A stretch of 64,000 nt of DNA from a virus. How positions within the stretch are numbered: the stretch's first letter is position 1; each line of letters starts with the position of its first letter. The notes beneath the pieces were generated by a model, which had not been told where the DNA came from, did no database searches, and saw nothing but the letters and a program-made list of their open reading frames with translations. The position numbers were made by a program, and so were the translations under genes. This document shows, piece by piece, positions 1 to 61,396 of this stretch. The stretch lies in UHGV virus genome UHGV-0021788; one strand, 5' to 3'.

Positions 1-760
1 AATAAAATGGAAAAAAGATGATATAATTTGTTATGTTGAAAAAGAAAAGGAAAAATTTATAGATTTTATAGAATATAATGGTTTCAATTCTACTATTAAA
101 ATATTATGCGAAAAGCATGGAGAATACAAAATTAGATTCGACCATTTCATAGAAGGTCAAAGATGCCCTATATGTAAAGAATCTAAAGGAGAAAAGAAAA
201 TAAGAGAAAATTTAGAAAAACTTAATATTGAATTTGAACACCAATATACTTTCAAGGACTGTAAATGTTATAAAGAATTGCCATTTGATTTTTATTTACC
301 TCAATATAATATGGTTATAGAATATGACGGAGAACTACATTATCAAATAGTTGATTATTTTGGTGGATTAGATAAATTTATAAATATCAAAATAAGAGAT
401 ACTATTAAAACTGAGTATTGCAAAAATAACAATATTAAACTTATAAGAATACCATATTGGAATTTTAAAAATATTGAAAAAATAATTTGTCAAGAATTTA
501 ATTAAATAAATATGAATAAACTTCAACGACTATTGAAATAATTGTAAGAACCTTATCAGAGGTTCTTTTTGATTGCAATTAAAGTAAAGTACTCTTAAGT
601 AAGAGGAAGTAGAGAATGTCTTATTTAATTAATGTAAGATGAAGTAGAAAATGTCTTATTTAATTAATGTAAGATAATGATATAGTCTCAACGTTTAGCG
701 AAAGCTAAAGAAGTTCATAAGAGAACTGCGTAAGAATAACGAACTTATGTGAAGATATTG
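1..760 (+). mobile_element. Group I intron, class 1, 3' portion only; the 5' end and upstream exon lie before the window. It carries a homing endonuclease ORF.
   Basis: R element cttcaacgacta at about 521-533 and S element gatatagtc at about 679-687. A hairpin sits at 549-570 and a 34-nt tandem duplication at 607-675. The downstream reading frame opens at about 761. The 3' architecture matches the six other copies in the window. Confidence 0.7.
2..505 (+). CDS. Intron-encoded homing endonuclease, 5'-truncated at the window edge. Zn-ribbon repeat N-terminal part plus Vsr-like PD-(D/E)XK (DUF559/EDxHD-type) C-terminal domain.
   Basis: The frame is open from position 2. The C-terminal motif is LPFDFYLP..IEYDGxxH..IKLIRIPYW, and a CPxC motif lies upstream. 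It is paralogous to the ORFs at 3276, 8823, 24878, 50246 and 52385. Confidence 0.7.
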   Translation: MKWKKDDIICYVEKEKEKFIDFIEYNGFNSTIKILCEKHGEYKIRFDHFIEGQRCPICKESKGEKKIRENLEKLNIEFEHQYTFKDCKCYKELPFDFYLPQYNMVIEYDGELHYQIVDYFGGLDKFINIKIRDTIKTEYCKNNNIKLIRIPYWNFKNIEKIICQEFN

Positions 761-1974
761 CTATGGGGGAAGATTGTATACTTAGTATGAATTTTTCCAA
801 AGAAGATGGTGAATATAAAGAATATTTATCTTCTGTTGAAAAATTAAATAAATTATTAAAATGTCAAAGAGAGGAGGGATTAAGTGTGGATGTAAATAAA
901 GAAACTTCTACTGTTGAAAACAAAGAAGAATTTGCTGAAGAAAATAAAGACGAAGAAGTTTGTCCTACTTGTGGAAAAAATCCTTGCGAATGCAAAAAAG
1001 AAAATCATGCAGTTAATGATGATGAAGAAGATAAAGCAGATGACAAAGTAGATGATGATGAAGAAGAAGATAAAGACAAGGATAAAGAAGATGAATCTTG
1101 TAAAAAGAAAAATCATGCAACTGAAGATAAAGCAGATGATGATAAAAAAGACGATAAAGAAGATGATAAATCTGACGATGACAAAGATGAAGAAGAAGAT
1201 GATGATAAATCAGATGAAGAAGACAAAGATAAAGAAGATGAATCTTGTAAAAAGAAAAATCATACAGTAGAAGATGACAAAGCAGACTTTGGACTTTCTT
1301 TAAATAATACATTTAAAGCCATAAGAAAGCAATTAGAATCTTACACTTACGAATATGTGAGCTATTGGGGTGACACTTATACTTGGAGAAAATATTATGT
1401 AGTAGAATTAATCCCTGAAGATTCAGTTGTTGTTATAGAAGATGAAGAAGAAAATGAATTCTATGGAATAACTTATTCTATAAATAATGATGATGTTGCT
1501 TTAGATTTGGATAATAAAGTATTATATATTCAAGAATGGAGAGCCAAAGAAACTAGTTCTGCTAGATTTGAAAATACTGATAAAAAAGAAAAATATACTA
1601 CTAAAGATGAAGTATATCAAGCAGTTGGAAAAGAATTAAAAGAACTTAGACAATTTAAAGCTGATATAGAAGCTCAAGAAGAAAAAGCTCAATTCGATGA
1701 AAAAGTTAATAATATTTTATCACAATTTGAATTCAGTGAAGAAGAAACTTCTGATTTAGTAGAAAAAGTTTATAACAAATCAATTAATTTAGATATGTTT
1801 GAAACTTGCTTATTTGCTTTAGAAGCTAAAAAGAATAGAGCTGAAAAAGAAAAATTTGCTAAAATAGAAAAAGAAAACAGTTTAAATATAGTTGATTCTA
1901 AAAAAGAAGAACAAGCAAAACCAAAATCAAGATTTGATTATCTATTAAAAGAATTTGGAAATAAAAATAAATAA
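761..1974 (+). CDS. Exon 2 of a head-morphogenesis gene (scaffold-like). It has an acidic D/E/K repeat region and a CPTCGKNPCEC motif. Exon 1 lies outside the window.
   Basis: The reading frame opens directly after the intron 3' end. The product is highly acidic and repetitive (DDKxDDKEDD repeats). It lies immediately upstream of the capsid genes. Confidence 0.45.
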
Positions 1975-1994
1975 TAAAAGGAGCATGAAAAAAC

Positions 1995-2562: not shown

Positions 2563-3020
2563 ATGAGACGAATGTCAGAATTAAATATAACTGATGTAAG
2601 AGATATGGCTTACAGTCTATATAAAGGTAAAACTGCTAATTTTGATGCTGAATCTGCAAATGAAGCTATCAAAAATATAATACTTAAAACAGCTGGATGT
2701 GAAGATGGTTGGGATATGTATAAATTCATGGATAACAAATACAAAGTATTTGCTATAATGAGAGAAATATTAACACCAGTTGTAGCTGAAAATGTTTTAG
2801 CAAGATTTGAATCTTGGGTAGACATAGAAGACATAGCTTTAGGTGATACTAAAGACTTTGAAATAATGAATCAAGAATTATTTGAAATAGGATATGTAGC
2901 TGATGGTACTTCTGAATTAAGAAGACAAAACTTAACTCATGGTAAAATCACTATGACTGGTTTCCAATTAGGAGCTAAATTATATACTGAATTTGACGAT
3001 TTTAGAAGGGGTAACTTAGT
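2563..3020 (+). CDS. Putative major capsid protein, exon 1.
   Basis: A strong RBS is present. The frame is interrupted by the intron; the apparent stop at 3025-3027 is intron sequence. The frame rejoins exon 2 at 4346. Position in the module and the joined size of about 340 aa fit an MCP. Confidence 0.5.
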
Positions 3021-4345
3021 TTACTAGACAGCCCCCTATGTTTGTAAAAAGCATAGCAAATCCTTTTAATTGCTGGAAACTCCTAAAGCTCAATTCACTA
3101 CAACGTAGAGTTAAAACTCAAGCGTGAATGTTACGAAAGTAGAAAAAAGTAATTGAGATTACCCAAGGTTAAATCCTAAAGGTGAATGAATGGACAATCA
3201 GCAGGGAAGATTTTGATTAACACTTAATTTTTTATAAGTTTATGAGTATAATATAAATAAATGGAGGTGATGAAAATGGCAAGAAAGATTTGGAATGAAA
3301 TTACAATAAAAGAATTTATAGAAAATGAAACAAATTATAAATTCATATCAATAGTTAAATTAAACGGAATGAAATCAATGGTATTAGTATGGTGTGGTAA
3401 TCCTAATCATAAGCCTTATAAAGTTCGATTTGATGCATTTAAAGGTACTTCTAAAAAAGAAGGAACGAGATGTGAACAATGTAGAAGAGAAAAAGATACC
3501 ATTTGGACTAAAGATGAAATTATAAAATATGTAGAATCTCAAGATTATAAATTTATAAGATTTGTAAAATTTAATAAATATGCAAGTACAATAGAAATTC
3601 AATGTAATAAAGGACACGAATCATATGAAACATACTTTAGTAATTTCTATAATAATAGAAGATGTTTTCAATGTCATATAATATGGTCTAAAAAAGATAT
3701 TATTAATTTTGTAGAATCTCAAGATTATAAATTTATAAGATTTATAACATATGAAAAAAATAATAGTTTAATAGAGATAAAGTGTCCTAAAGGACATATG
3801 AATCAAGTTAGATTTAGAAAATTTAAAGAAGGAACTAGATGCCCAAAATGTAATAAATCTAAAGGTGAGGAAAGAGTAAAAGATATATTAAAAGAAATGT
3901 GTATAGATTTTAAATCACAATACAAATTCAAAGATTGTAAATGTAAAAAAGAGTTGCCATTTGATTTTTACATACCTTCATTAAATATTGCAATAGAATA
4001 TGATGGAATACAACATTTTGAAATATTACCACATTGGGGTGGCATTGATAAACTTATAGAAACTAAAATACATGATGAAATAAAAACACAATATTGTAAA
4101 AGAAAAAGAATAAAACTTATTAGAATTCCTTATTGGGAATTTAAAAATATAGAAAATATACTTATAAAAGAATTAGTGTTAAATTAGAATAACCTTCAAC
4201 GACTAGAGCATAAGCTCGTACACTCAAGTGAGTGGAAATGGAGGATGCCTAGAAATAGGTAGTGATATAGTCTTGTCTCATGTGAAAGCATGAGTAGTTC
4301 ATAAGAGAACGGATTAGGAGTAACGACCCTAGTTGAAAATAAACG
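3021..4345 (+). mobile_element. Group I intron, class 1, with HEG, inserted in the putative MCP gene.
   Basis: P2 hairpin ctatg...catag at 3036-3056, P at 3067-3078, Q (aatcagcagg) at about 3192-3203, R (cttcaacgacta) at 4194-4205, S (gatatagtct) at 4264-4273. The 3' end ...tgaaaataaacG lies at 4345. The exon phases match (2 nt + 1 nt). Confidence 0.8.
3276..4187 (+). CDS. Intron-encoded homing endonuclease with Zn-ribbon repeats and a Vsr-like/DUF559 (EDxHD-type) domain.
   Basis: Repeated CxxC-containing modules (RCEQC, CFQC, CPKC) are followed by LPFDFYIP..IEYDGIQH..IKLIRIPYWEF. The likely start is the ATG at 3276, after GGAGGTG. Confidence 0.75.
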   Translation: MARKIWNEITIKEFIENETNYKFISIVKLNGMKSMVLVWCGNPNHKPYKVRFDAFKGTSKKEGTRCEQCRREKDTIWTKDEIIKYVESQDYKFIRFVKFNKYASTIEIQCNKGHESYETYFSNFYNNRRCFQCHIIWSKKDIINFVESQDYKFIRFITYEKNNSLIEIKCPKGHMNQVRFRKFKEGTRCPKCNKSKGEERVKDILKEMCIDFKSQYKFKDCKCKKELPFDFYIPSLNIAIEYDGIQHFEILPHWGGIDKLIETKIHDEIKTQYCKRKRIKLIRIPYWEFKNIENILIKELVLN

Positions 4346-4913
4346 CAGAACTGATTTTGCTGAATGGATAAGTAGATTAGGAAAATCTTTTGAAGTTAAA
4401 ATAGGTGAATATATAGTTAGAGGTATAGAAGATGCTTACACTAGCTTAGGTGCTAAATTTGGTGTAACTGGTGCATACCAAGATGAAAAAATGGTTGAAT
4501 TAATAGAAAGAGTTGAAGCCAAAACTGGACAAAAAGCTACTATATACGGAACTAAATCTGCTTTAGCTAAATTAAGAACTGGTGCAGATGGAGCATTCCA
4601 AGCTTACTTATCAGATAGTGACAAAGAAAACATAAGTAAAACTGGTAGAGTTGGAGATTACTATGGAACTCCTGTTGTTGAAATACCTCAATCAGTTAAC
4701 AGAAAAGACGAATTTATGTTAAATAATAAAATGCTTTATGTAATACCTAATGGAACTAAAATAATAAAATTATTATTTGAAGGCGATGTAGATGTTATAG
4801 AAGTATCTGACCCAGCAGTAAGAAAAGATATGCAATTTGAATATATGTTCATGAGAAGAATACAATTAGGTGTTTGTAAAGCTTCTGTTTATGGAATATA
4901 CAAAATGAACTAA
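4346..4913 (+). CDS. Putative major capsid protein, exon 2.
   Basis: The frame opens at 4305. It joins exon 1 to read ...RRGNLV/RTDFAEWISRLG... Confidence 0.5.
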
Positions 4914-8373: not shown

Positions 8374-8560
8374 ATGGCTACACTTTTTGCTATAAAAGAT
8401 GCTATAGATTTAAAAATAACTAAAAAAGGTGAACAAACAGTTTTCACTACAATAGACTATTTAAATGATTGTCAAATAGAAATGGACTCAGAACAAGTAT
8501 ATGCACTTAAAAAAGGAGATAACTACATATCATTCTCAAGTGGTAGAACAGGAATAACTT
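8374..8560 (+). CDS. Putative major tail (tube) protein, exon 1.
   Basis: AAAGGTG RBS. The frame is interrupted by the intron and resumes at 9700. Confidence 0.5.
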
Positions 8561-8771
8561 ATTAATAATAAAACGTTCCCTATGTTTGTAAAAAGCATAG
8601 CAAATCCTTTTAATTGCTGGAAACTCCTAAAGCTCAATTCACTAAAACATAATCTGAAAATGATAAGTGTGAATGTTACGAAAGTAGAAAAAAGTAATTG
8701 AGATTACCCAAGGTTAAATCCTAAAGGTGAATGAATGGACAATCAGCAGGTAAGATTTATATTTATTTTAC

Positions 8772-8800
8772 TTTACTTTTAATAATTAAATTTGTATAAT
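8772..8800 (+). promoter_or_regulatory. Intron-internal sigma-A-like promoter for the HEG: TTTACT-17-TATAAT.
   Basis: tttact, a 17-nt spacer, then tataat, followed by a GGAGGTG RBS and the ATG at 8823. The same cassette precedes the other HEGs. Confidence 0.5.
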
Positions 8801-8822
8801 ATAAGTAAATGGAGGTGGCAAA

Positions 8823-9536
8823 ATGGGAGTTATTAAATATGATTATGATTTCGTTAAAAAATATATCGAAAGTTTTAATTATAAATTATTAAGTGATTAT
8901 ATTGGTATACATGATAAAATAACATTAAAATGTCCTAAAAACCATATTTATAAAACTTCATTTAATAGTTTTTATAGTAACAACTGTAGATGTGGAAAAT
9001 GTAAAAATTTAGAAACAGCAAATAAGAGAAAATATTCAATTGAATACGTTAAAGAATATTTAAATTTATTTGGATATAAATTATTAACAGAAAACTATAT
9101 TAACAATAAACAAAAATTAAAAATAGAATGTGAAAAGGGACACATTTTCTATATGAGTTTTAGTAAATTTAAAAATGCAAAACAAAGATGTCCAGTGTGC
9201 AAAATGTCAAGTGGCGAACAAGAAATTTATAGAATATTACATAAATATTTTGATGACATTGAAATACAATATAAATTTAATGACTGTAAAGATAAAAAAA
9301 GACTTCCATTTGATTTTTATTTACCTCAATATAATTGTTGTATAGAATTTGATGGTATTCAACATTTTGAATATCAGCCACATTTTGGAACTTATTCTAA
9401 ATTTTTAAAACAGCAAAAAAGAGATGAAATAAAAACAGAATATTGTAAAAAAAATAATATAAAATTAATAAGAATAGCTTATTATGAATTTGATAAAATA
9501 GATGAAATTATAAAAAATGAATTAAAAGTAAAATAA
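8823..9536 (+). CDS. Intron-encoded homing endonuclease with a Zn ribbon and a Vsr-like/DUF559 (EDxHD-type) domain.
   Basis: CPKNH, CGKC and CPVC motifs are followed by LPFDFYLPQYNCCIEFDGIQH...IKLIRIAYYEF. Confidence 0.75.
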   Translation: MGVIKYDYDFVKKYIESFNYKLLSDYIGIHDKITLKCPKNHIYKTSFNSFYSNNCRCGKCKNLETANKRKYSIEYVKEYLNLFGYKLLTENYINNKQKLKIECEKGHIFYMSFSKFKNAKQRCPVCKMSSGEQEIYRILHKYFDDIEIQYKFNDCKDKKRLPFDFYLPQYNCCIEFDGIQHFEYQPHFGTYSKFLKQQKRDEIKTEYCKKNNIKLIRIAYYEFDKIDEIIKNELKVK

Positions 9537-9699
9537 TAAATATGAATAAACTTCAACGACTATCCCTAAATGGGAGTACACTCAAGTGGGTGGAAATGGA
9601 GGATACCTAGAAATAGGTAGTGATATAGTCTACTCTTACATGAAAATGTAAGCAGTCGAAAGACGGTATGAGATTAACGACCTCATGCGAATGTTAAGG

Positions 9700-10070
9700 C
9701 ATTGACAATGAATTGTCAAGTAATGGACGATGACTTCTTATGTATGATGCTTGGTGCTACTAAAAGTTCAGATGGTAAAATATCTGTAACATCTTCAGTT
9801 CCAAACCAAAGTTATACAGCAGAAGGTACTTTTAGAACTACTTCATTAGCTGGAGACCAATACAAAAAAATAAAATTCTACAACTTAAAAGCACAAGTTT
9901 CAGCTGACTTAACTTTATCTGCTTCTGATGTTTCTGAATTCTCATTAAAATTAGATATAATGGCAGATGATACTGGTAAAATATTAGATATAGAAAACAC
10001 TACTGGTGGTATATCTGCTGGATTTAATGAACCAGAAGTTGTTTCTATAAAAACTAAAGCTGATAAATAA
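9700..10070 (+). CDS. Putative major tail protein, exon 2.
   Basis: The frame opens at 9678. The joined product of about 186 aa is typical of siphovirus tail tube proteins. A strong terminator follows. Confidence 0.5.
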
Positions 10071-11191: not shown

Positions 11192-14100
11192 GTGAGCGAA
11201 TTTGATATAAGAATTGGTACGCAACTAGATACTAGTAAAGCGTTACAAGAATTAATGGAATTTGTCAAAAAATATGACAATAAAGAAAAGATAAATATAG
11301 ACATAGGTCAATCAAAAGGTGCTAATAATGTAAAGAATACAACTAAAGCTATGAAAGAAATGCAAAAAATAGCTAAGACATTAGGAAATACAAAGATTGA
11401 CGTAGGTAGTAACATAGGTAAAGCAACCAATGAAGCTACCAAATCATTAGAAAATAGTATAGATAAACAAGCCAAATCTATTGCTAAAATAACTAGTGGT
11501 GCACAAAGAGATTTAACTAAAGATGCTCAAAAGGGTATTGAAAATAGTCTTAAAGGTATTACTACAGAAATGAAGAATACCCAAAGAAATGTCGACAAGA
11601 TGATTGGTACTCTTGAACGAGCTAAGAAGGTTGAATTAATAGACCAAAAAGGTTTAGATGAAGGATTAGCTAAATTAAAAGATATGAAAGCTAACCTTAG
11701 AATAGACAATGTTGGTGATGTAGAGAAAAAATTAGGCGAAGTAGCAAATGACTATAAAAGATTAATGTCAGATGCAACTAAAGAAGCATTTAATAATGTT
11801 GAAGTATCAGGATTATTAGAGGATTTAAAAGTTGTTAGAGAAGCTATGTCAGCTAAAAACATGGACTTAACTGGTGTTGATACTTTAATTTCTAAAGCTA
11901 AACAACTTACTTCTTTAAGTGTTGACCAAATGTTAAAACAATATAAAGAGTTAAGACAAGTATTTAGTAAAGAATTAAAGATACCATTAGGTTTAAATGG
12001 TGTAATGAATGCTGAAACTGCAATTAAAAATGTTTTAGATTATAAAAACAAATTAACTGCTAAAATTTCAGTTGAAACAAATTCAGAGCAAGTAGATATT
12101 TTAAGAGATAAAATAGTAAGATGTGATGAAGTTGTTAAACAACTTGAAGGAGACTTAAATTTAGTAGGTAGAAGTACAGCATTAAACTTAATGGAACAAT
12201 CCAATGAAAGAGAATTAGATACATTAAGTGCTAAGTTAAAGAGATGTAAGAATGATTATGCTAACTTAGAAAAAGAAAGACAAAGATTAAATAGAGATAG
12301 TAGATACATTGGAACAGAAGATTTAAGTAATATAGAAAAACAATCATTAGCTATAAAGAAAGCTCTTGATAGTTTAAATATTGGAAATTTAAATACAGAT
12401 AAAATAAATAAAGTTACTGGCGATATAAATAATTTAAGAAAAACAATAGAATTAACTGGTAATTCAGCTAAAAAATTAGATATAGAAGCAACAGTTAAAG
12501 TAGATATGAAAACTGCTCAAGACCAATTAAATGGTATGTATTCTGCTTTAATAAAATCTAATAAATCTACCGTAATGGTTAAAAAATATAAAGATGAATT
12601 AGAAGGATTATTTGATTTATCTAAAACTAATCCAGGTGTAGCATTAGATAAAATAAGTGGTTTTATAGAAAAAGTAAATAAAGAAGCAAGTAATAAAGGT
12701 TTAGGTAAGATAACTGGTGGTTTAGACCAATATAAACAATATTTAAAAGATTATGAAACATTAGTTAAAAAGGCTAGTGGTACTACAGATATTGGTTTTG
12801 CAAAAGCTTACAAATCAGAAGTTACACAAATAGAAAAAGCATTAGACCAATTAGAAAGTGGATTTAATCAAACTCAAAAATCTATGGCTAAAGCTTTAAG
12901 ATTAGAATCAATTAATAAGAACACTCAAGAGTTTACTAATCAAGTTGAAAAATCTATTAAGAAAACTCAAGAATATAAAAAAGAGTTACAAACTCTTAAT
13001 AAAGATGTAAATTTTGATGGTCTTACTTCTAAATTAGGTCAAAAAGTCAAAGAAGAATTTGACGGAATGATTAACAAAACTAATCAATTAGAAAAAAGAC
13101 TTGGTAATATGTTATCATCAGGTAACATAAATACTACTGAATTATCTAAATTAAAATCAGAACTTGAAAGTACTTTTTCTGGTCTTTCTAAACTTAAAGA
13201 TACTAGTATTAAAATTAAAACTGATGAAACTATATCAGGACTTAATAAAATTAAAAAAGATTTAGAATCATTAGGTCAAGATACTAGTCAAATAGAAAGA
13301 GTTATTAATGCATTAAAACAACTTAAAGCTAATTTCAGTGGTGGTACAGCAGGTTATAAAGAATTAGCTAATGGAATAAAAGCTATTGGAAAAGATAATA
13401 ACTTGGAAAAACTAAATAGTTCTTTAGAAAAATCAACTAAAAAATTTAATAACTTAGCTAAGGTTGTTGGAGAATTAAAGGTTAAAAATATAGGAAATAT
13501 AGACCAAGGTGCTTTTCAATCTTTAGACAGTCAAGTTGCACGAATACAATCTCATATAGAAGGTTTAAATAAAAAAGATATATCTTTAATAGATGTTAAA
13601 AAGGTTGAAGCTGAAGTAAATGAATTAAGCAACTGTGTAGAAAAAACGAGTAGTGAATTAACTCAGTATAGTAGATATTTAGAAGAATATAAAAGATTAT
13701 CTAGCCAAGCAGGTAAAACAAATGATGTTAATTTAGCTACAAAATATCAACAAGAAGCAGAAGGTATAAAAGGTGTATTAACTCAATTAGAAAGCGAATT
13801 TACACAAGCTCAAAAATCTATTGCTCAAGGATTAAAAACAGATGCCTTCTCAAATGCTAATGAAAAAATGTCTTCTGAAATTAATAAAACAATTAATACA
13901 GTTGATGGTCTTAAAGAAAAACTTAATTCATTAAATAAAGATGTACATTTTGAAAATATGACATCTGAATTAGGTAAAGGATTAAATGACCAATTTAATA
14001 CTTTAACTAGTAAAGGTGAAGAATTAAAAAATAAATTAAGTAAAATATTAGCATCTGATAATGTGGATATTTCTGCTTTAAGTAAAATTAAAAAAGAAAT

Positions 14101-50194: not shown

Positions 50195-50223
50195 TTGACT
50201 TTTAATAAGATAAATTGTATAAT
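50195..50223 (+). promoter_or_regulatory. Intron-internal promoter for the HEG: TTGACT-17-TATAAT.
   Basis: Consensus -35 and -10 elements with a 17-nt spacer, followed by a GTGAGGTGA RBS. Confidence 0.55.
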
Positions 50224-50245
50224 ATAAGTAAAGTGAGGTGATAAA

Positions 50246-51160
50246 ATGGGAAGAAAGAAAACACATGAGGAATTTATGAAAGAGTTTTATGAAAAAAATC
50301 CTAATGCTAAAAATATAGAAATATTAGGAAAATATGAAGGTAGAAAAGTAAAAATTTTATGTATGTGTAAAATAGATAACTATAAATGGCATACAACTCC
50401 TAATGGATTATTGGGAAGTAAAAATATTAAACCAAATGGATGTCCGAAATGTGCTGGAAAAATAAAAAAAACACATAAACAATTTATAGAAGAAATGAAT
50501 GAAATAAATCCAAATATTAAAATATTGGGGCGTTACATAGATGCTAAAACTAAGATAGAATGTGAATGTAAAATAGATGGATATAAATGGGAAGTTGAAC
50601 CAACTAATTTGCTACAGAAAAGAGGATGTCCAAAATGTGCTAATAAAATACCTAGAGAACATGATGATTTTGTTAAAGAATTAAATAACATCAATCCTAA
50701 TATAAAAATAATAGGTAAATTTATATCTACTAGAACTAAAATAGAATGTGAATGTAAAATAGATGGATATAAATGGGAAGCTGAGCCAAGACATCTTTTA
50801 GGAAATCATGGATGTCCAAAATGTAATGATTCTATTGGAGAAAAAATAACTTATAATATATTAAATAAATTAAATATAAAAAATATAAGACAATACAAAT
50901 TTAAAGATTGTAAATTTTATAAATGTCTTCCTTTTGATTTTTATTTGCCACAATATAATTGTTGTATTGAAATTGATGGTAAGCAACATGAGAATATAGT
51001 CAAATGGTTTGGTGGGTTAGATGGTTTTATAGATAGAAAAATTAGAGATACGGTTAAAGATATATATTGTAAGAATAATGGAATAAAATTAATTAGAATT
51101 ACATATAAAGATATAAATGAAATAGAAAAAATAATTTGTCAAGAACTTAATTTAAATTAA
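50246..51160 (+). CDS. Intron-encoded homing endonuclease with three Zn-ribbon modules and a Vsr-like/DUF559 domain.
   Basis: CPKC repeated three times. The C-terminal part reads LPFDFYLPQYNCCIEIDGKQH..IKLIRITYKDI. Confidence 0.75.
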   Translation: MGRKKTHEEFMKEFYEKNPNAKNIEILGKYEGRKVKILCMCKIDNYKWHTTPNGLLGSKNIKPNGCPKCAGKIKKTHKQFIEEMNEINPNIKILGRYIDAKTKIECECKIDGYKWEVEPTNLLQKRGCPKCANKIPREHDDFVKELNNINPNIKIIGKFISTRTKIECECKIDGYKWEAEPRHLLGNHGCPKCNDSIGEKITYNILNKLNIKNIRQYKFKDCKFYKCLPFDFYLPQYNCCIEIDGKQHENIVKWFGGLDGFIDRKIRDTVKDIYCKNNGIKLIRITYKDINEIEKIICQELNLN

Positions 51161-51319
51161 TTTAATATGAATAAACTTCAACGACTAAGTATCCTAGTAG
51201 TCTAGGTAGTGGAGGATACCCTTATTGGGTAATGATATAGTCTGCTCTCATGGGAAACCATGAGCAGTTTTTATGTAAAAAAACGGATAGAATAGTAACG
51301 ATATTCTATTGAACATAAG

Positions 51320-52155
51320 GTGTTGAGGAATCACAAGCTACTAATGTTTGTTTCCAAAATATAAGTGAATGGGAAAAAGGTACTGATTTTGATTTTCATT
51401 TAAATACAGGCGACATTTCGCAAAATGCAAACAGAAGTTTTGAGTGGAGATACCACTATAAATATGCAGATGACCTAATAAGAACTATGTGTCATCAAAT
51501 AACTTGTGGGAATAATGACTTAATAGATAAGAAATATTCAGATGCATTTACATGGTACATGACACCAGAAGATTATTTCTTACCAGACCAAATAGATAGT
51601 GGTTCAGGTGTTATGGTTAATAATCCTAATAAATGTACTTTTAATTCATGTCATAGTTTTGACTTAGGATATGTACATTTTGTTTGTTTAAATAGTAATA
51701 AAGATTATTCTATGTTTAATGAAAATGAAGGTGAAAAAATAGATGATTGGATACAAAGAGAATGTGCATGGTTAGATGCAGATTTAACTAGAGATGAATC
51801 TAATGCTAAAACAAGATGGGTAATATGTTATATGCATTACGCACCTTTTACAGTATCTAGACCTGACTGGATACAAAGATTTGTTCCTGTATTTGAAAAA
51901 CATAGAGTACATTTAGTATTATGTGGTCACAACCATACAAACTCAAGAAGTATTGTAGTTAGAAGTGGTTATGATGGAGACCCAAATAAAGCAAGCTATG
52001 ACCCTAAAGGTCAAAAAACAGCTGAAGAAGAAACAGCTTTAGGACATGGTACTATAAATCATAATGAAGATTTAAAAAATGGTACTCTTTACCTAATGAT
52101 TAATGCAACTGGATTCAAGAATACAGGTAAAGAAAGTATACAAAATCCTTATCCT
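51320..52155 (+). CDS. Metallophosphoesterase catalytic domain, exon 2.
   Basis: GDISQNA, the GNHE-like LCGHNHTN (GHxH) and YMHYAPF are calcineurin-like phosphoesterase motifs. The frame opens at 51319. Confidence 0.55.
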
Positions 52156-52332
52156 TGGTAAAAAAATATTGCCACTTTACATAGTAATATGTAATGACAA
52201 ACTCATTGAATTGCTGGGACGACCTTAGAGCCTTAATGCCACAATATAAGAGAAATCATTATATGAAGGTTTAAAAAGTTTAAGGATTGGTTAATCAGCA
52301 GGTAAGATTCTAAATTAAATTATTTTAAATAC

Positions 52333-52361
52333 TTGACTTTTAATAAGATAAATTGTATAAT
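52333..52361 (+). promoter_or_regulatory. Intron-internal promoter for the HEG: TTGACT-17-TATAAT.
   Basis: Identical to the cassette at 50195-50223. Confidence 0.55.
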
Positions 52362-52384
52362 ATAAGTAGAGTGAGGTGATAAAT

Positions 52385-53299
52385 ATGGGTAAAAAGAAAA
52401 CACATGAGGAATTTATGAAAGAGTTTTATGAAAAAAATCCTAATGCTAAAAATATAGAAATATTAGGAAAATATGAAGGAAACAATAAACCTATTAAATG
52501 TCGTTGCAGAATAGATGAATACGAATGGTATCCAAGACCTTGTCATTTATTGGGAAATAAAAATGCTAAACCTACTGGTTGTCCTAAGTGTAGTGGAAAA
52601 GCAAAAAGAACAAATGAAGAGTTTATTAAGGAAATATATATAATAAACCCTAATATAGAAATACTTAGTGAATATAGTGGAGTTAGTAATTTAATAGATT
52701 GTCGTTGTAAAATAGATGATTATGAGTGGTCATCAATTGCTGATAATTTATTACATGGACATGGTTGTCCTAAATGTGGAGGACAAATAAAAAAGGAACA
52801 TGAAGAGTTTGTAAAAGAAATGGAAGAAATAAATCCCAATATAGAAATACTTGGGGAATACAATGGAGTTCATGAATATATTTTATGTGGATGTAAAATA
52901 TGTAATCATGAATGGACAACTCGTCCTCATGAATTATTAAATGAATACGGATGTCCTTCTTGTAATATATCTCGAGGAGAATTTAAAATAAAAACTTTAT
53001 TAGAAAAATATCAAAAACAATATAAATATCAATATAAATTTAAAGATTGTAAATTTTATAATGAATTACCTTTTGATTTTTATTTACCTGATTATAATAT
53101 TGCAATAGAATATGATGGAGAACAGCATTATAAAATAATTAAACAATTTGGTGGAATAAATAGATTAATAGATAGTAAAATAAGGGATACTGTTAAAACT
53201 GAATATTGTAAAAATAATAACATAAAACTTATAAGAATACCTTATTGGAATTATAAAGATATAGAAAATATACTTATAAAAGAACTTAATTTAAAATAA
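52385..53299 (+). CDS. Intron-encoded homing endonuclease with a Zn ribbon and a Vsr-like/DUF559 domain.
   Basis: CPKCSG, CPKCGG and CPSC motifs. LPFDFYLPDYNIAIEYDGEQH..IKLIRIPYWNY. The ATG at 52385 follows a GTGAGGTGA RBS. Confidence 0.75.
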   Translation: MGKKKTHEEFMKEFYEKNPNAKNIEILGKYEGNNKPIKCRCRIDEYEWYPRPCHLLGNKNAKPTGCPKCSGKAKRTNEEFIKEIYIINPNIEILSEYSGVSNLIDCRCKIDDYEWSSIADNLLHGHGCPKCGGQIKKEHEEFVKEMEEINPNIEILGEYNGVHEYILCGCKICNHEWTTRPHELLNEYGCPSCNISRGEFKIKTLLEKYQKQYKYQYKFKDCKFYNELPFDFYLPDYNIAIEYDGEQHYKIIKQFGGINRLIDSKIRDTVKTEYCKNNNIKLIRIPYWNYKDIENILIKELNLK

Positions 53300-53475
53300 T
53301 TTAACATGAATAAACTTCAACGACTATCCTGTAATGGAGTAGGGTTCAAGCGAACTCGAAGTAGTGAGCATCTTAATAAAGATGAAGATATAGTCTAGTC
53401 TCATGGGAAACCATGAGCAGTTTTTGTGCGTAAAAACAAAACGGGTTAGGTGTAGCGAACCTAATTGAATATAAC

Positions 53476-53690
53476 GGGTATGGATTAAGAACTTCACATC
53501 CAACACAACCAACTTATGCAACATTAACTATAGGTTGGGATAAGATAGAATATAAATGCTATAAGATAATGAACACATTAAGTAAAGATAGAAACGGAAA
53601 TACAATAGTAGTGCCTTATGGTAGTCAAACTAAAGAATTGTATGATAGTTGTACTCTTAATTGGAGAGCAAAAGGTCAAACACTAATATA
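53476..53690 (+). CDS. Metallophosphoesterase, exon 3 (C-terminal, about 71 aa).
   Basis: The frame is open from 53434 to the TAG at 53688-53690. It joins exon 2 at a codon boundary (..NPYP/GYGLRTSHPTQ..). Confidence 0.4.
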
Positions 53691-53704
53691 GGTGGTGATA
53701 GTTT

Positions 53705-56377
53705 ATGCCTAATAGAATTTGGAGTGAAGAAAAAAAAGATTGGATAATAGTCGATGAAACAAATTTAGCTACAAATATAGAAGTAATGGATATCAAAGAG
53801 TACTATCATAAAAAGAAAACAGAAGAAGAAACAAAAGATGATGAATTTTTAAGTGTTGAAAAATGCTTAGAACAAATAGGGGATAAAATAAATAATGGTG
53901 ATATAGGTGCTATAGGTGAAATAAAAGATAAAGTACAAGATTTGGATGACAGAGTAACCTATATTGAAGAAAACGGTGGTGGTGGAGGAGGTGGCTCTTC
54001 CATGCCTACCGTTAAACTTCTTAGTGATAGTTATTATGCTATACCAACCGATGGAGAATTAAATATTTATTATAACTTTACTTCTCCAAATATAGGATTT
54101 GGTACAGCATTTATAAGTTTAGACTATGGAACAGCTGAACAGTTATCAGTTGCACAAGGTCGTAATTTTTATACTGTAAAAAACTTAGAAAAAGGTGAAC
54201 ATAGACTAGATATATATGTAACTGATATAACAGGTTTATTCTCGAATACAGTTACAGTAACAATAGTTGTTGGTGGACTTGAATTAACTTCTAATTTTGA
54301 CGATAGTACGGATTTATCCTTAGAGGATTATATTAGAATAAGATATGTTATCTCAACAATATCTTCTAAGCCAATTGAAGTGTCTATTGAAATAGATGGT
54401 AAACTAACAAAAGCAGAAGGTATAATTGGTCAAAATATATTGGAAGTTGGACAGTTTAGTTCATTAGGGGTTCATACAGTTAAAATATCAGCCGTCAGTG
54501 GTGATTTAGTATCAAACCAATTAGTATTTAATTTAGTTGTAGCCGATTCAGAAAATCTTTATGTATCTACTACTTTTCCTGATAATTATACTATACAAGT
54601 AGGTAAAAACCTACAAATTGATTATAGAAATAGTATGGTAAATCAAAATAGATTTATTACTCATATGCTTATAAATGGTACTGAAGTAGATACGGTAACA
54701 TCTTATTCAGGATATAACTATTGGAACGTTGGGTCTAATTTAGAGATAGGTTTATATACTTTAACATTATATTCTACTACATCCGATGGTGCATATACAT
54801 CAAATTATTTAACATGGGTAATAGATGTTGTTTCAGAAGACTATGTTCCCTTTAAGGTTGTAACAGATGGGTTATTATGTAATTTTGATGCTAATGGTAA
54901 TCAACAAACATCTTCTAGTAGAAACATATGGAAAGACGATAGTGGAAACGACGTTAAATGTGAATTGTTTAATTTCAACTATTCTACAAATGGTTGGATA
55001 GATAACAGTTTAGTATTTAATGGTAAAACATATGCTAAAATAGATTTTTCTCCTTTTAGTGATAATATCAAAAATGGTATGACAATTGATATGTTATTTA
55101 AAGTAAAAAATGTTGGTGATATAGACGGAAAAGTATTATGGTGTAAAAATCCAATTACACCTTACCAAGGTTTTTATATAAATACTTATGAGGCAAATTG
55201 TCGTTCTGCCAACTCAAGAATAGTTAGTAACCAATTTCAAGATGACACATGGACTAGAATAACATGGGTTATTAATAGAGAAGATTTGACAATGATAGCT
55301 TATGTAAATGGTATCATAACGAAACCTGTATATATAACAGATACAGAAAACTTTAGAATGGAAAAAGATATTTATCTAGGTGTATCATTTGACGAAGTAG
55401 ATAACAATTTAGATAATGATGGTAATCCAATACCTCACTATGCATCTTGTTCTATAAAAACATTTAGAATATATGATAGAGCATTAACTGATGAAGAAAT
55501 ATTACAAAATCATATTGCCGATATAAAAGATAAAGAAAAACAATTGGAAATAAGAGAAAAGAACTATGGTGATAGTACAATGCCTATCATAAAATTTGAA
55601 GGTAATGTAGAAGGTATGGATGGTAGTATCTATAAATTATTAACAATAGATTATAATGACCCATTAGACCCATCTAAACGTTTTAGACAAGAACAATGTA
55701 GAGTAAAATGGCAAGGTACTTCTTCACTAGAATATCCAGTAAAAAACTATACAATAGAACTTAGAAGTGGTGGTAACGTTTGGGAATATGCTCCTAAAGA
55801 CAATTGGCTACCAGAAAAAAGATATACTTTGAAGGCTTCGTTTATGGATAGTTCTACATATAATAACGTTGGTTCTTCTAAATTAATTTATGATTACTTT
55901 AGAAAATCTAATATGTTTTATCCACAAGAAATTAAAAATCCTAAAACTAGAGCAGTAATAGATGGTTTCCCAGTTAGACTTTATATTAATGGGGAATCAA
56001 AAGGTATATATATGTTCAATATAGATAGATATGCTGAAAACAATTATGGATTTTCTGGGGAATCATCAATTGTATCTTATGAAATAGCTGTCAACTCTGA
56101 AAGTGGTGCTGGTGCTTTCGCATCAGATGCTTGGTCAAGTATACGTTCTGAATTTGAAATGAGATATCATTATGCTGGAGATGAAAGTGTTGTATGTGAA
56201 ACTGTTATGGAAAATGGTGTACCAACTACTGTTTTAAAAGCAGGTTTTCATTCAGAATTACAAAATTTAGTTTCATGGGTATTAAATTCTACTATAGAAG
56301 AGTTTAGAAGTGAATTAAAAGAACATTTTGAATTAAACTTTTTAATAGATTATTATCTATGGGTTCTATGTTTGGGT
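53705..56377 (+). CDS. Giant host-interaction protein, exon 1: a Gly-rich linker, Ig-like region, LamG (ConA-like) domain and the N-terminal part of a CotH-like domain.
   Basis: LamG-like NSLVFNGKTYAKIDFSP...TWTRITWVINRED..AYVNG. CotH-like KRYTLKASFMDSSTYNNVGSSKLIYDYF...VRLYINGESKGIYMFNIDRY. The RBS resembles that at 47598. Confidence 0.55.
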
Positions 56378-56469
56378 TAATACAATGGCTCAAGTAAAAC
56401 TTTCTCTGATTAATGGCGAACACCCTAGTAGAAAAGGGCAACGCTCAAGAAGATTTATTTAACAATATT

Positions 56470-56498
56470 TTGACTTTTAATAAAATAAGTAGTATAAT
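56470..56498 (+). promoter_or_regulatory. Intron-internal promoter for the GIY-YIG HEG: TTGACT-17-TATAAT.
   Basis: The same cassette (ttgacttttaataaaataagtagtataatataa) as the Vsr-like HEGs. Confidence 0.5.
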
Positions 56499-56519
56499 AT
56501 AAATGAAAGGGGTGATACT

Positions 56520-57230
56520 ATGAGTGAAAATAAATATTATGTTTATGAATGGATTAGATTAGACACAAATGAACCATTTTATGTAGGTAAAGGTTGTGGA
56601 GATAGATGGAGGAATTTATATAGGGATTACAATCCTCGTTTTATGAATATAATAAATAAAGTACCAGTAGCAGTATCAATATTAATAAATAATTTAACAG
56701 AAAAGGAATCTTTTGATTTTGAATGTTATTATATATGGTTATATAAAGATATTATAGGATATGATATATGCAATATAAATGAAGGTGGGGAAGGTCAAAG
56801 TTTATGTGGTGAAGCTAATGGTTTTTATGGTAAACATCATTCAGAAGAAACTAAAAAATTATTAAGTGAACAACATAAAGGCATGACTTATTCTCAAGAG
56901 ACAAAAAATAAATTGAGTGCTATGAGAAAAGGTGAAGGGAACGCTATGTGGGGACGTAGAGGAGAATTATCTCCGCATTGGGGTAAAAAATATTCAGAAG
57001 AAAGAAAAAATAATATTAGTAAAGCAATGGGTACTTCTGTAAAGTGTATTGAATTAAATATAGAATTTAATAGTCTTAATAAAGCAGAAAAATATATGAT
57101 TAAAGAATATGATATTAAATTTTCTCATAAAACTTTAAAAGCTACGATAGAAAAAAGAAGAAAAAAAGATTGGTATGGAGAAATAGAAATTAATGGAGAA
57201 TTAATTAAACTTCATTGGGAATATTGTTAA
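56520..57230 (+). CDS. GIY-YIG homing endonuclease with NUMOD3 repeats (I-TevI-like).
   Basis: YVYEWIRLDTNEPFYVGKGCGDRW (the GIY-YIG motif). Repeated GKHHSEETKKKLS / SQETKNKLS / SEERKNNIS (NUMOD3). Confidence 0.75.
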   Translation: MSENKYYVYEWIRLDTNEPFYVGKGCGDRWRNLYRDYNPRFMNIINKVPVAVSILINNLTEKESFDFECYYIWLYKDIIGYDICNINEGGEGQSLCGEANGFYGKHHSEETKKLLSEQHKGMTYSQETKNKLSAMRKGEGNAMWGRRGELSPHWGKKYSEERKNNISKAMGTSVKCIELNIEFNSLNKAEKYMIKEYDIKFSHKTLKATIEKRRKKDWYGEIEINGELIKLHWEYC

Positions 57231-57446
57231 ATAAAATCACTTGCAACGACTGAGTGAGAAAGGCTTAAAGATTAATTCTTTAAGTAAGCAACAGTCTGAA
57301 CTTGCGAATATAATTTCTACAAAAAACAAATCGCAGAAGAGGGGTCATCGGTAATCAGACCGATTAAAGAAGAACCCCTCTCGCCAACTTAGGTTGGTCA
57401 GTAGCCGAAAGGTGAAAGTAACAGAATGCTAGTAGACAACTTGGGT

Positions 57447-57691
57447 TTAATGATTTTGGCTCAAGTATAAAATTCTCTCTGATTAATGGCGAACACCCTA
57501 GTAGAAAAGGGCAACGCTCAGGAAGATTTATAAAATCACCTGCAACGACTGAGTGAGAGAACACTTATTTAAGTGAAGCAACAGTCTGAACTGCAAATAT
57601 AATTTCTACAATAACAAATTGCAGAAGGAAGTTGAAGTGCTTCCTCGCCAACTCAAGTTGGTCAGTAACCGAAAGGTGAAAGTAACAGAAT
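57447..57691 (+). mobile_element. Intron-like element, class 3, ORF-less. It is a tandem near-copy of the preceding element without the endonuclease.
   Basis: The 5' and 3' blocks are near-identical to 56388-56460 and 57345-57424. A putative mini-exon of about 19-22 nt lies at 57428-57446. Confidence 0.45.
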
Positions 57692-57745
57692 TGAAAAATA
57701 TGGTTTTAACAACTTTCGGTATGAATGCTGAAGGTAACGTAATTT
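57692..57745 (+). CDS. Putative short CotH exon (LKNMVLTTFGMNAEGNVI).
   Basis: This frame is open only here. The peptide continues a CotH-like core when joined to WYDADSELG of the next exon. Confidence 0.35.
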
Positions 57746-58001
57746 GGTATCCATCCTTTGACATAGGAGGATGTAAAACTCTCTTTAATTGACTTGGAAG
57801 TCCTGAAGAGGACGACAGGGGGCAAGTTTAAATACAGCCTGAACGACTAAACAAGAGAGCATTATCATATTGATAATGATGTGATAGTCTGAACTCTAGT
57901 AATAACTTGTTTTAATGAAACTAGAGAAGGAAATCCGAAGTGTTTTCCTCGCCATAAAATATTATGGTCAGTAGCTTAGGAATAAGTGAAAGTAACAGAA
58001 T
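57746..58001 (+). mobile_element. Intron-like element, class 3, a divergent third copy, ORF-less.
   Basis: It has the same 3' terminus (cctcgcca....gtcagta.c...gtgaaagtaacagaa) and an analogous 5' block (gtaaaactctctttaattgacttgg). A tggtat repeat occurs at both junctions. Confidence 0.45.
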
Positions 58002-61000
58002 GGTATGATGCAGACTCAGAGTTGGGTTTAACCAACGATGGTGAGTTAAGATACGGTTCAGGTATCGACACTTTAACAGATAATTTCAATACTTCTGATT
58101 CTAAATTATGGACTAAATTACTAGAAGCTTTCCCAGATGAAGTACAAGCAAGATATATCTATATGAGAAGTAATGGATTTATGACTTATGAAAATATTAT
58201 AAAATATTATGAAAATATAGCAGATACAATTGGTCAAACATTCTATAATGAAGATGCAAGACTTAAATATATTAATGAAGATAATAAATCATTTATTTAT
58301 ATGTGTAATGGTTCAAGACTTGAACATACAAAAAGATGGTTAAGCGAACGTATTGTATATATGGATAGTAAATTTAACTATGGTGATTTCTTATTATCTT
58401 CTACTATACGTTCAAATGTTTCCGGTGAGGTATCATTAAAAGTAAAAACATATTCACCTCAATGGGTAGAAATATCTTTCTCAGATAGTGCTACAGGTAC
58501 AACAAGACAATGGTGTAGTAAAGATAAATGGTATACATTTATAAATACCATTGAAAATGCCGTCGACAACAATATCACCATTAGAGGTGTAACTAATATA
58601 ATGTATTTACAAGGATTAGAAAATTTAAATGTATCTTCTTTACTTGTATCAAATGCAAAAGGTTTATGTGAAATTGATATTCATGGTTCTAAACGTATTC
58701 AAAGATTGGAACTAGGTAACAATATCATGTTACAAAAACTTAATTGTAAAGATTGTATTAATTTAGGTATTGATGATAACTATAAAGTTGTTAACTTGGA
58801 AAAATGTATCAACTTAAAATATCTTGATTTATCTAATACTATGATAGGTACACTTCAATTAAATAAAGATGGTGGTGCATTAGAATATTTAGATTTATCT
58901 GAAACAGAATTAACTTATTTAACTTGTAACCATCAAGAATATTTACCTGAAATAAAATTAGATGGTTGTAAAAATCTATCATCTGTTACTATTAATGGTT
59001 GTAATGCATTAACAAGATTGAGTTTACCTAATACTAAATTAGCTGAATTTACTGTAACAGATTGTAATAGTTTAAATTACCTTGATATATCATATACTGG
59101 TTATTTAGTAAAATTAGATTTAACAGGTTGTAGTAGTTTAACTACTTTAATAATGTCAGGTATAGCAAATAATAAATTTACTGAATTAGATGCGAGAACA
59201 TTAACAAAATTAACAACATTAGATGTGTCTAAATGTTATTTCTTAAATAATATAAGATTTGCTAATGGATATAATGCTTTAACATCTGTAAACTTCCAAC
59301 AAAGTGGGATTAAGACTTTACAGTTTGGAAATAATGAAAAACCTCCTTATTTAGATTTATCTCCATTTAATTTAACAGAAGTTAATTTCTATAACTGTAC
59401 TGAAATAGAATATATTAAAAATATAAAATTATATGCTACAAAATCCATAGAACCTTTTTATAATTGTGTTAATTTACACACTATAGAAGGTACTATAAGT
59501 TTAACTGATGATTTAGGAAGAAGTTTTTATAATTGTAAAAAACTAGTTAATTTACCTACTTTAGATTTAAGTAGAGTTAAAACAGCTTCGGATTCCTTTA
59601 TGCATTGTGAGTCTTTAACTTATGACCAATTACTAGAAATTTTAGGTAAGATGAATAATTGTCAAAGTTTTTATAGAACTTTCCAAAACTGTTTAGCTAT
59701 GGAACATGACGGTTGGGAAAAAGCTTTATTCGATAAGATACCAAAAGCAACTTATTTTTATTGGACATTCTCAGATACTCCAATAAGCGGACAATTAGAG
59801 CAAGGAATCTTTGATAGTTTATTAGATTTACAAACTGTAGATGGATTATTTAGCGGTGGTAAGGCAAAAGGTTATATTCCAGCCAATCTATTCAAATATA
59901 ATACAAAATTACAAAATCTTTGGAATCTATTTAATGGATGTAAAGAATTAGAAACTGCTACTAATATAGTAAACATGTTTACCACTACAGTAGATTTAAG
60001 AGGTATAGAGGGATTATTTAGTGGTTGTACTAATGCTTTTATGAAACTAAGTGATACATGGTTTGCAAATTGTCCAGAGCTACAAAATATGGATTATGCT
60101 TTTGCAAATTGTACAAACTTAATTGGTTCTATAGCTGAAAATCCTCATATGATAAAAAATAAATCTAAATTAACAACAGCAGAACATACCTTCCTTAATT
60201 GTACAGGCATAAGTGGTGATTTACCTGATGATTATTTTGTTGGGTGTACTGCTTTACAAGAAATACAAGGACATTTTCAAGGATGTACTGGTCTAACAGG
60301 AACTCCTAAAACTGAATCATGGATAGATTGTGAAAATATAACTAATGCTTCATATTTATATGCAGGATGTACTGGTTTAGGTGGTATAGCAGGTGCTACT
60401 CAAGAAATACCTAAAGATTTCTATAAAAGAAAATATAGACTTATAGATATATCTGGTATGTGGCAAGGTTGTAATCAACTACAATTTTCTCTAATGCCAT
60501 TAAAAGAAGATAAGTTAGGTGAGGATGGAGCTGTTATAGAAAAAGGGGACGACCCTTGGTTTGTTGATTGTAGACAGTTAGCGAAAATAAATTATCTATT
60601 TGATGGTTGTAGTAATTTATCATCTGTAATACCTTCTAGGTTATTTGAAGTTTGGGATGAAAAAGGCGAAGTAATGGATACACTTATAACAGAAGCTAAA
60701 GCGGTATTTAAAAATTGTCAATTACTTACAGATGAAATACCAGAAAATCTATTTGAAAAATTTATTAAAGTTAGAGATTTAACTGAATTTTTCTATCAAT
60801 GTAGAAGTTTAACTGGTGGTATTCCTGATACATTATTTTCTAATTGTTATTCTTTAGTTTATGCTAATAGAATGTTTATGCGTTGTGGTAAATTAGGAAA
60901 ATATGCAGACCAAGTAACAGAAGAAGAGCCATATTTCTGTAATGAAGAACTATTTTGGAACTGTCCTAACCTATTGGAAATATCTCAATTATTCCATATG

Positions 61001-61396
61001 TATGATGGATGGGGAACTTCTCTAAGAGGAGACATACCTCCATTGTTATTTAGAGCTAATCCTAAATTACAAAATATAAATAATGCCTTTGCTGGTTGTA
61101 GTCTTTTAACTGGTGGGTTGGATGGGCAACTATTTGTTAGAAATGCTAAATTAAAAACTGCTAGAGAAACTTTCCACGGTTGCTCAGGTTTAAATGGAGA
61201 AATGAGTGGAGCGTTATTTACCTCTACTAATAATCCACTTTTAACAGATTTCTATCAAACCTTTCAAAATTGTAAAAATATACAAGGTACTGCACCTTCA
61301 TTATGGACACAATTCTCTAATGCAAATGGTGGAGGATGTTTTAATGGATGTACTAAATTAAGTAATTATGCAGATATACCTTCACAATGGAAATAA
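58002..61396 (+). CDS. Giant host-interaction protein, last exon: the CotH C-terminal part plus an extensive BspA-type leucine-rich repeat region.
   Basis: The frame is open from 57986. LRR_5-like repeats (F.gCt.L.g.i......f..C..L) run through about 59300-61300. A strong terminator follows. Confidence 0.55.

Follow-up and report, generated by a model that had tools for sequence, protein, structure and literature searches.

Group I introns of three lineages interrupt the head-and-tail genes of an uncultured SPbeta/phiCD211-like phage

Why should the structural genes of a phage break off and resume again and again within a single module? The stretch that raises this question, 64,000 nucleotides (nt) of the virus genome UHGV-0021788 and referred to here as the window, encodes the head and tail of an uncultured SPbeta/phiCD211-like phage of low-GC Firmicutes with a genome of ~170–200 kb. 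A stop-to-stop map of its open reading frames (ORFs) shows long frames that break off and continue at the sites listed by an initial annotation, which had proposed at least 12 intron-like elements in three sequence classes. All twelve are present, and a systematic search found no more. The window holds exactly 12 group I introns, 11 of them complete and one, I1, cut by the window start; seven belong to family 1, two to family 2 and three to family 3. The three classes are three lineages, all of group I: the second and third families are not elements of other kinds but further group I lineages, one recognized by the Rfam model RF00028 and the other by a covariance model of our own. Very probably the module has been colonised by a dozen mobile group I introns drawn from these three lineages.

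The introns total 10,053 nt, 15.7% of the window, or one per 5.3 kb. They interrupt five structural genes that lie wholly in the window and a sixth, the head/scaffold gene, of which exon 2 is in the window: four are in the tape measure gene, three in a gene for a CotH domain followed by leucine-rich repeats (CotH-LRR), two in a phosphoesterase gene, and one each in the capsid, tube and head genes, just as the initial annotation had counted them. Seven carry an endonuclease ORF (six of family 1, plus 3a) and five have no ORF at all. Their limits were set by comparison with intron-less alleles, and with limits set in this way the 3′ terminal base is G (omegaG) in all 12. Inteins do not fit, as stop codons close the host frame within each insertion and five of them lack any ORF. 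A motif scan of the window for further pairs of the core strings R and S (see below) turned up no extra elements, and none of the other window genes looks interrupted; introns of unknown classes may exist all the same.

Family 1 comprises I1–I4 and I6–I8, all of which share the core strings AATTGCTGG..CCTAAAGC, AATCAGCAGG, TTCAACGACTA (R) and GATATAGTC (S), followed by P9 hairpins. I1 (1–760; all features given here are on the + strand) is the 3′ part of an intron in the head/scaffold (YonD_N-like) gene, whose R, S and omegaG lie at 526, 682 and 760, respectively, and it retains the C-terminal part of an endonuclease ORF (2–505). I2 (3012–4345, 1334 nt) lies in the capsid gene, with its endonuclease ORF (3261–4187) in the P6 loop, and I3 (8555–9699, 1145 nt; ORF 8823–9536) lies in the tube gene. 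I4 (16629–17009, 381 nt) and I6 (24615–26177, 1563 nt; ORF 24878–26002) are in the tape measure gene; I4 has no ORF and is absent from L004, one of the related contigs used for comparison, which are designated here by L-numbers (L002, L003, L004, L010, L013, L017, L019, L022, L023, L045 and others). The phosphoesterase gene contains I7 (49980–51320, 1341 nt; ORF 50246–51160), for which 49981–51321 is equally possible because U flanks both sides, and I8 (52160–53476, 1317 nt; ORF 52376–53299), which is canonical at both ends, with a U preceding the 5′ junction and with omegaG.

Two kinds of model recognize this family. I4 matches RF00028 at 16619–16958 with 68.9 bits (E 6e-17), above the gathering threshold of 50 bits, and so do ORF-less orthologs of I6 (L022, 54.0 bits) and I1 (L013, 53.7 bits). 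The core strings correspond to conserved core stretches of the RF00028 alignment of I4—the P, Q, R and S of the initial annotation—and this alignment, together with the common strings, supports a pseudoknot core for the family. The second, the covariance model R2, describes the 3′ core of family 1 and was built from 11 introns of related contigs and a staphylococcal phage, none orthologous to a window intron. Searched with filters off, it scored I6 at 113 bits, I7 at 110, I3 and I2 at 101, I8 at 97, I4 at 64 and I1 at 40 (E 4e-7 to 4e-23). Its only other matches at E<0.01 were a second piece of I1 (24.9 bits; the two I1 matches span 514–616 and 630–720) and a weak cross-family match to F2b. 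A weaker match at 63386–63476 (E 0.07) falls within a normal ORF and does not represent an intron; Rfam found nothing in 63000–64000. I4 also aligns, at 76–79%, with PBS1/AR9 introns and with the 3′ core of the intron found in lysK of staphylococcal phage K. The subgroup can be called IA-like on account of such similarity to known phage introns, rather than from a subgroup-specific model.

Family 2 consists of two ORF-less introns in the tape measure gene, F2a (16321–16615, 295 nt), absent from L004, and F2b (17394–17768, 375 nt), absent from L003. When the 1.7-kb stretch 16200–17900 was searched alone, RF00028 matched three times: to I4, to F2a (16302–16553, 37.1 bits, E 2e-7) and to F2b (17435–17709, 28.2 bits, E 9e-5). 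Elements resembling family 2 occur in crAss-like phages, in Clostridium phages and in AR9. One with 80% identity to parts of F2a is found in the Clostridioides difficile phages phiCD211 (NC_029048.2, 28585–28804) and phiCDIF1296T (19723–19942), where it underlies an annotated coding sequence for a tape measure/tail protein and may be an unannotated intron.

Family 3 is confined, in the window, to the CotH-LRR gene: 3a (56378–57428, 1051 nt), with an endonuclease ORF at 56520–57230 in the P6 loop, and 3b (57447–57693, 247 nt) and 3c (57760–58003, 244 nt), both without an ORF. All three are absent from L045. Rfam gave no match in 56250–58100, but the 3′ tail of the family, GGTCAGTA..GTGAAAGTAACAGAAT, is present in 55 IMG/VR contigs, and a covariance model, R1, was built from 18 non-redundant IMG/VR members, none from the window. 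Their alignment supports P3, P4, P5, P6, P7 and P8, with the P3/P7 pseudoknot typical of group I. Over its 41 pairs, 98.9% of cells are paired, versus 37–46% with slid partners; compensatory changes occur in 18 pairs, including pairs of P3, P5, P6, P7 and P8, and none of 500 shuffles reached the observed covariation score. R1 scored 3c at 167.4 bits (E 1e-42), 3b at 130.5 (E 5e-33), and the 3′ and 5′ halves of 3a at 67.4 and 11.8, with nothing else in the window above noise. Elsewhere, introns with the same 3′ tail interrupt tape-measure-like genes of unrelated ~128-kb viral contigs (L047, L065; exon motif FGVELNDLIGYT..), and in many aquatic viral contigs family-3 introns occupy one and the same conserved site (..AATG|AGACCTGG..).

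Do the frames on either side of these elements belong to single genes? The initial annotation had claimed that they do and that they resume in matching phase, and both claims are borne out. With the introns taken out, each of the five genes has a single open frame, encoding a capsid protein of 335 amino acids (aa), a tube protein of 183, a tape measure protein of 4329, a phosphoesterase of 776 and a CotH-LRR protein of 2049, and every intron site is spanned by an uninterrupted homolog or allele in related contigs. Comparison with intron-less homologs, suggested at the outset for the capsid, tape measure and phosphoesterase genes, gives continuous proteins at all sites. The coordinates first given were close, with several boundaries off by 1–18 nt; the 3′ end of F2b, for example, moves from 17750 to 17768.

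Exon 2 of the head/scaffold gene (761–1974) was located by tblastn with the uninterrupted 591-aa YonD_N protein of L019, which reads ..PGAMGTEC.. across the I1 site; the CT with which exon 2 opens finishes an Ala codon started in an exon 1 outside the window. I1 is present in all five close relatives, with or without its endonuclease gene. The major capsid protein gene, aligned with intact YonB-family capsid proteins, has exons at 2572–3011 and 4346–4913. More than 100 uninterrupted homologs of 330–336 aa match the spliced product, and in L002 (98% identical) and the IMG/VR contigs L013 and L017, which lack I2, 3011/3012 is joined to 4346/4347. A splice model joining 3020 to 4346 was dropped; the three residues it adds occur in no homolog. 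The tail tube exons (8374–8554 and 9700–10070) align with a YomU-like tube protein of 194 aa that is intact in L019, and the I3 junction, GRTG-T-LTMN, agrees with the GRTGTLTMN of that protein.

The tape measure gene is in five pieces: exon 1 (11192–16320), a 13-nt micro-exon (16616–16628, AAATTACGCTGGT), exon 3 (17010–17393), exon 4 (17769–24614) and exon 5 (26178–26795), each placed by intron-less alleles or related contigs and by the open spliced frame. L004, which has neither F2a nor I4, reads AMDLV-NYAG-NNFA, with the same 13 nt in frame, and this confirms the small exon between the two introns. L003, without F2b, reads AIAG-KTQAGVF and so fixes the end of F2b at 17768. L023, without I6, reads SLTG-QKRLADL, and L022 carries an ORF-less ortholog of I6. 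The spliced protein (11192–26795) implies a very long tail and, at 4329 aa, is among the largest tape measure proteins known to us.

The phosphoesterase exons are 48703–49979, with the Pfam domain Pur_ac_phosph_N, 51321–52159, with the Metallophos domain, and 53477–53691. In L010 and L045 the homolog is one continuous protein, reading QQAWT-VEE at the I7 site and NPYPW-W-Y at the I8 site. In the CotH-LRR gene the three family-3 introns split the Pfam CotH domain in half. Exon 1 (53705–56377) ends inside the domain (Pfam CotH 2–182 of 322) and matches phrog_9915 at 16–852 of its 1813 positions; exon 4 (58004–61396) encodes the rest of the domain and then the leucine-rich repeats, and matches the same profile at 874–1531. 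Between them lie an 18-nt micro-exon (57429–57446) encoding LVDNLG and one of 66 nt (57694–57759) encoding KNMVLTTFGMNAEGNVIWYPSF. In L045 both parts are contiguous in one frame, and the 27 residues between them are those of the two small exons (..VLG-LVDNLG-KNS..; KNSVWTTFGMNAQGNVIWYPSF). The window thus has micro-exons of 13, 18 and 66 nt, flanked by introns and each confirmed by an intron-less allele.

If these elements behave as their structures suggest, each intron would be transcribed within its host gene, its RNA would fold into a P1–P9 ribozyme and remove itself by two guanosine-dependent transesterifications, and its removal would restore one continuous reading frame. Virion assembly would then depend on about 12 ribozyme reactions, four of them on a single tape measure message of 13 kb and several bridging exons of just 13–66 nt.

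Where exactly would such introns be cut? Seven of them (F2a, I4, F2b, I8, 3a, 3b and 3c) follow an exon that ends, as expected, in U. Before I1, I2, I3 and I6 the exon ends in G, G, A and G, respectively, and the U is the first base of the intron; that U pairs with the G of the guide sequence in the sole good P1 helix (e.g. AGGGG-U with GCCCCCU). L003 carries a further intron with the same kind of exon end, and the I1 junction is also observed in L013, L014 and L015, so that the unusual junction occurs, with P1 pairing kept, at at least five independent sites. I7 would have an exon ending in C if it starts at 49980, but U occurs on both sides; it and two similarly flanked introns of relatives are ambiguous, and compatible with the shifted rule. 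On these comparisons I1, I2, I3, I6 and probably I7 appear to be cut, at their 5′ ends, one nt upstream of the canonical place. The capsid exon itself varies here (window 2995–3012): intron-bearing alleles read AGG GGT and intron-less ones (L002, L013, L017) AGA GGT, and the G restores pairing with the guide sequence. This difference suggests exon co-adaptation, or co-conversion.

The offset might be only apparent, with splicing canonical, after U and G, or with the 3′ cut made one base past the G, but we think this unlikely. A cut at the canonical place, after the U, adds one base and runs the frame into stop codons. I6 does have a canonical solution (24616–26175), which adds one Ser (U, plus CG after G26175), and the ambiguity of I7 and the two introns of relatives leaves the idea some room; but the Ser codon is absent from the intron-less allele, and the I6 ortholog of L022 has A in place of G26175, which makes the solution unavailable there. 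I2 and I3 have no canonical in-frame solution, and the only one for I1 cuts 7 nt past the expected omegaG and replaces three conserved residues. Moving the 3′ cut one base past the G creates a UAA stop in I6, for which it was rejected, and changes conserved Ala/Thr to Val/Ile in I1, I3 and the L003 intron. I1 shares its 3′ tail, GAAGAUAUUG, with a canonical intron of L003, and this fixes omegaG. The same procedure, applied to the lysK intron of staphylococcal phage A5W, recovered the canonical solution.

A shifted 5′ cut has a precedent, documented previously for group B IStrons only. In these, the U that forms the U-G pair is part of the element and the exon ends in G; the junction was established from element-less alleles, confirmed experimentally for BcISt1, and called remarkable among thousands of group I introns (PMC4227781). 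The likeness lies in the U within the element and the non-U exon end. IStrons have an IS200/605-type transposon at the 3′ end and a fixed target, whereas the window elements contain no transposase ORF, have either an endonuclease in P6—matching homing-endonuclease PHROGs—or no ORF, and follow varied nucleotides (G, G, A, G and C for I1, I2, I3, I6 and I7). Tentatively, and aware that the balance tilts somewhat the other way, we raise the idea that a whole lineage of phage group I introns, endonuclease-bearing and ORF-less alike, brings its own U for the U-G pair, is cut out one nt upstream of the canonical 5′ site and accepts any nucleotide at the exon end. If so, that lineage would be freed from the need for a target U, which could explain how it came to colonise so many sites. 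Recurrence of the shifted junction at several independent sites makes the last-exon-U rule directly testable outside IStrons.

Several points weigh against reading the elements as working group I introns. We infer splicing, its efficiency and the exact junctions from comparisons of DNA. Exons that end in a base other than the canonical U, as before I1, I2, I3, I6 and probably I7, predict, on classical rules, poor 5′ cleavage, and micro-exons of 13 and 18 nt offer very little sequence for P1 and P10 pairing, which could favour exon skipping. Both family-2 scores lie under the Rfam threshold. A search of the 3.7 kb from 49900 to 53600, which holds the endonuclease-bearing I7 and I8, returned no Rfam match, whole-window scans detected none of the endonuclease-bearing copies, and such copies are assigned to group I because both of their halves are homologous to ORF-less copies.

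The Rfam results call for comment, as the initial annotation had offered such a search as a check and the lack of a hit as grounds for refutation. Run on the whole window, at the gathering threshold and at E≤10, it gave no match; run locally, it placed I4 above threshold and family 2 below. An empty result is unsafe as a refutation because the whole-window scan missed I4, which scores above threshold on a short stretch, as do ORF-less orthologs of I1 and I6. The whole-window negative is probably an effect of Infernal's speed filters, and ORFs of ~0.7–1.1 kb looped out of P6 likely explain why endonuclease-bearing copies are missed. For annotators there is a warning in this: standard whole-window Rfam finds none of the 12, and the capsid, tube and tape measure genes, among others, are broken into fragments by gene callers.

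Might the elements instead be decayed relics that no longer splice, on contigs that are defective prophages with broken structural genes? Five introns with a nucleotide other than U before the 5′ junction would fit decay, and relatives do occur in bacterial metagenome-assembled genomes (MAGs). We judge this improbable. All 12 insertions preserve the frame exactly; catalytic cores are conserved across sites and in diverged relatives; the unusual junction recurs at independent sites with its P1 pairing intact, AGG replacing AGA; and several independent contigs of 173–204 kb carry the introns. Still less credible, to the point of being nearly negligible, is the notion that the interrupted ORFs are separate genes and the spacers intergenic stretches with free-standing endonuclease genes: this group of phages does contain such genes (one, of the GIY-YIG type, lies by the start of the tape measure gene in L013), but here the fragments join in frame and match single proteins of relatives to the residue, Rfam and independent models both recognize group I cores in the spacers, and five spacers have no ORF.

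If they are group I introns, are they mobile ones? For the five complete family-1 ORFs the matches (E 1e-60 to 1e-76) are to phrog_559, phrog_9084 and phrog_7140, profiles whose annotation is homing or intron-encoded nuclease (that of I2 matches phrog_559 at E 9e-65); a search of the I2 endonuclease sequence against the PDB gave nothing useful. All family-1 ORFs, the truncated one of I1 included, share a C-terminal motif, PFDFY..IEYDG..H. Pfam finds treble-clef zinc fingers and CapR in the I6, I7 and I8 endonucleases, and weak PvuRts1I-like/DUF2726 matches at the C-terminus of those of I3 and I7; a PD-(D/E)XK-like C-terminus accompanies the zinc fingers and CapR in two of the five complete endonucleases, those of I7 and I8. 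NUMOD3 motifs occur in the 3a ORF, whose N-terminus resembles a GIY-YIG motif. Most of these genes are preceded, inside the intron, by TTGACT-17 nt-TATAAT and a Shine-Dalgarno sequence of the GGAGG type, a putative promoter and ribosome-binding site. Such cassettes lie at 50190–50250, 52325–52385, 24835–24880, 8790–8825 and 56470–56522, and the same cassette serves two unrelated endonuclease families.

The introns are also optional. Among relatives with 91–98% DNA identity, I2, F2a plus I4, F2b and I6 are each missing somewhere, and I1 and I6 occur in versions with and without the ORF. Relatives have at least eight further insertion sites: in the tube gene at ~8499, ~8519 and ~9808 (window coordinates), in the tape measure gene at ~16305, ~17130, ~24491 and ~26395, and in the CotH-LRR protein at residue ~712. 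Their further introns include L002 5940–7565, L003 2660–4490, L022 9177–9527, L023 6287–7690 and L045 10537–11716, and three of the additional sites lie within 60 nt of the tube gene. Across the phage group the module has at least 20 insertion sites. An insertion of ~590 nt in L013 (14330–14930, corresponding to window ~11190) is not among them; it is the free-standing GIY-YIG gene mentioned above, which is inserted between genes, directly upstream of the tape measure start, and is absent from the window. Endonuclease ORFs in introns that come and go among relatives are what homing introns would be expected to leave. In a mixed infection the endonuclease would cut the intron-less allele and repair would copy the intron in; homing of this kind, we propose, is why relatives differ in their intron sets at many sites. 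With differences at almost every site, the group is a natural system for the study of intron gain and loss, endonuclease decay and co-conversion.

How unusual is all this? In most respects the elements are familiar. The R and S strings, UUCAACGACUA and GAUAUAGUC, are those of phage IA introns (T4 td, nrdB and sunY; Twort orf142; phage K lysK and pol; the DNA polymerase introns of SPO1 and Bastille), and these, too, have an endonuclease ORF looped from a peripheral helix, reside in conserved protein genes, and are optional among relatives. It is their number and placement that differ. Classical cases amount to one to five introns per genome of 130–170 kb, mostly in genes of DNA metabolism, whereas the 64 kb of the window contain 12, every one of them in a virion gene; a single tape measure gene has four, and three lie within 1.6 kb of a CotH domain. 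Cluster J mycobacteriophages have one or two introns per genome, as against twelve in this one module.

High intron loads in large phages have, however, been published, so that the window is an extreme case and not a new phenomenon. Jug phages, the most intron-rich described, have on average 18.5 introns per genome of 360–402 kb, or ~1 per 20 kb, and metatranscriptomic reads support splicing for 37 of 76 introns checked in three genomes (PMC12880540). In the Bastillevirinae there are small internal exons (phiNIT1) and exon skipping (PMC11878797). The resemblance to both groups lies in many group I introns per genome, in essential genes, with several endonuclease families. Jug phages, which infect Bacteroides, have mostly elements of ~206 nt, whereas the introns here are full-size, more than half with endonuclease genes, and sit in a Firmicutes siphovirus module of the SPbeta/phiCD211 kind at one per 5.3 kb. 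The claim that their density far exceeds that of classic intron-bearing phages therefore holds, and this is the densest cluster of putatively self-splicing introns that we could find in any phage compared. The window is extreme in its local density, in the number of introns per gene, in its short internal exons and in the confinement of introns to virion genes, and it may show that the IStron-type 5′ junction is more widely spread than has been recognized. Structural genes are not new hosts as such: Cluster J mycobacteriophages are described as having group I introns in capsid and tail genes (PMC3706429).

The phage itself is known by its relatives. All genes in the window are on the + strand and G+C is ~27%; a tRNA scan of the window found none. 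Neighbouring proteins of related contigs belong to the Pfam families YonB (capsid), YonD_N, YomX, YomW, YomV, YomU_Tube and YomN, a set of the Bacillus phage SPbeta type. The closest cultured phages are C. difficile phages of ~131 kb, of the phiCD211 type, with capsid identity of just 36%; when the first 12 kb were compared with cultured phages by megablast, the only match was 114 nt of intron core in staphylococcal phages. The close relatives, at 91–98% DNA identity, are IMG/VR contigs of 173–204 kb, and more distant ones are found in MAGs that bear the labels Bacilli and Peptostreptococcaceae. In the head/scaffold protein a long, acidic stretch of low complexity (window 763–1300), made of D/E/K repeats, gives rise to spurious antisense ORFs and to weak, snoRNA-like Rfam noise.

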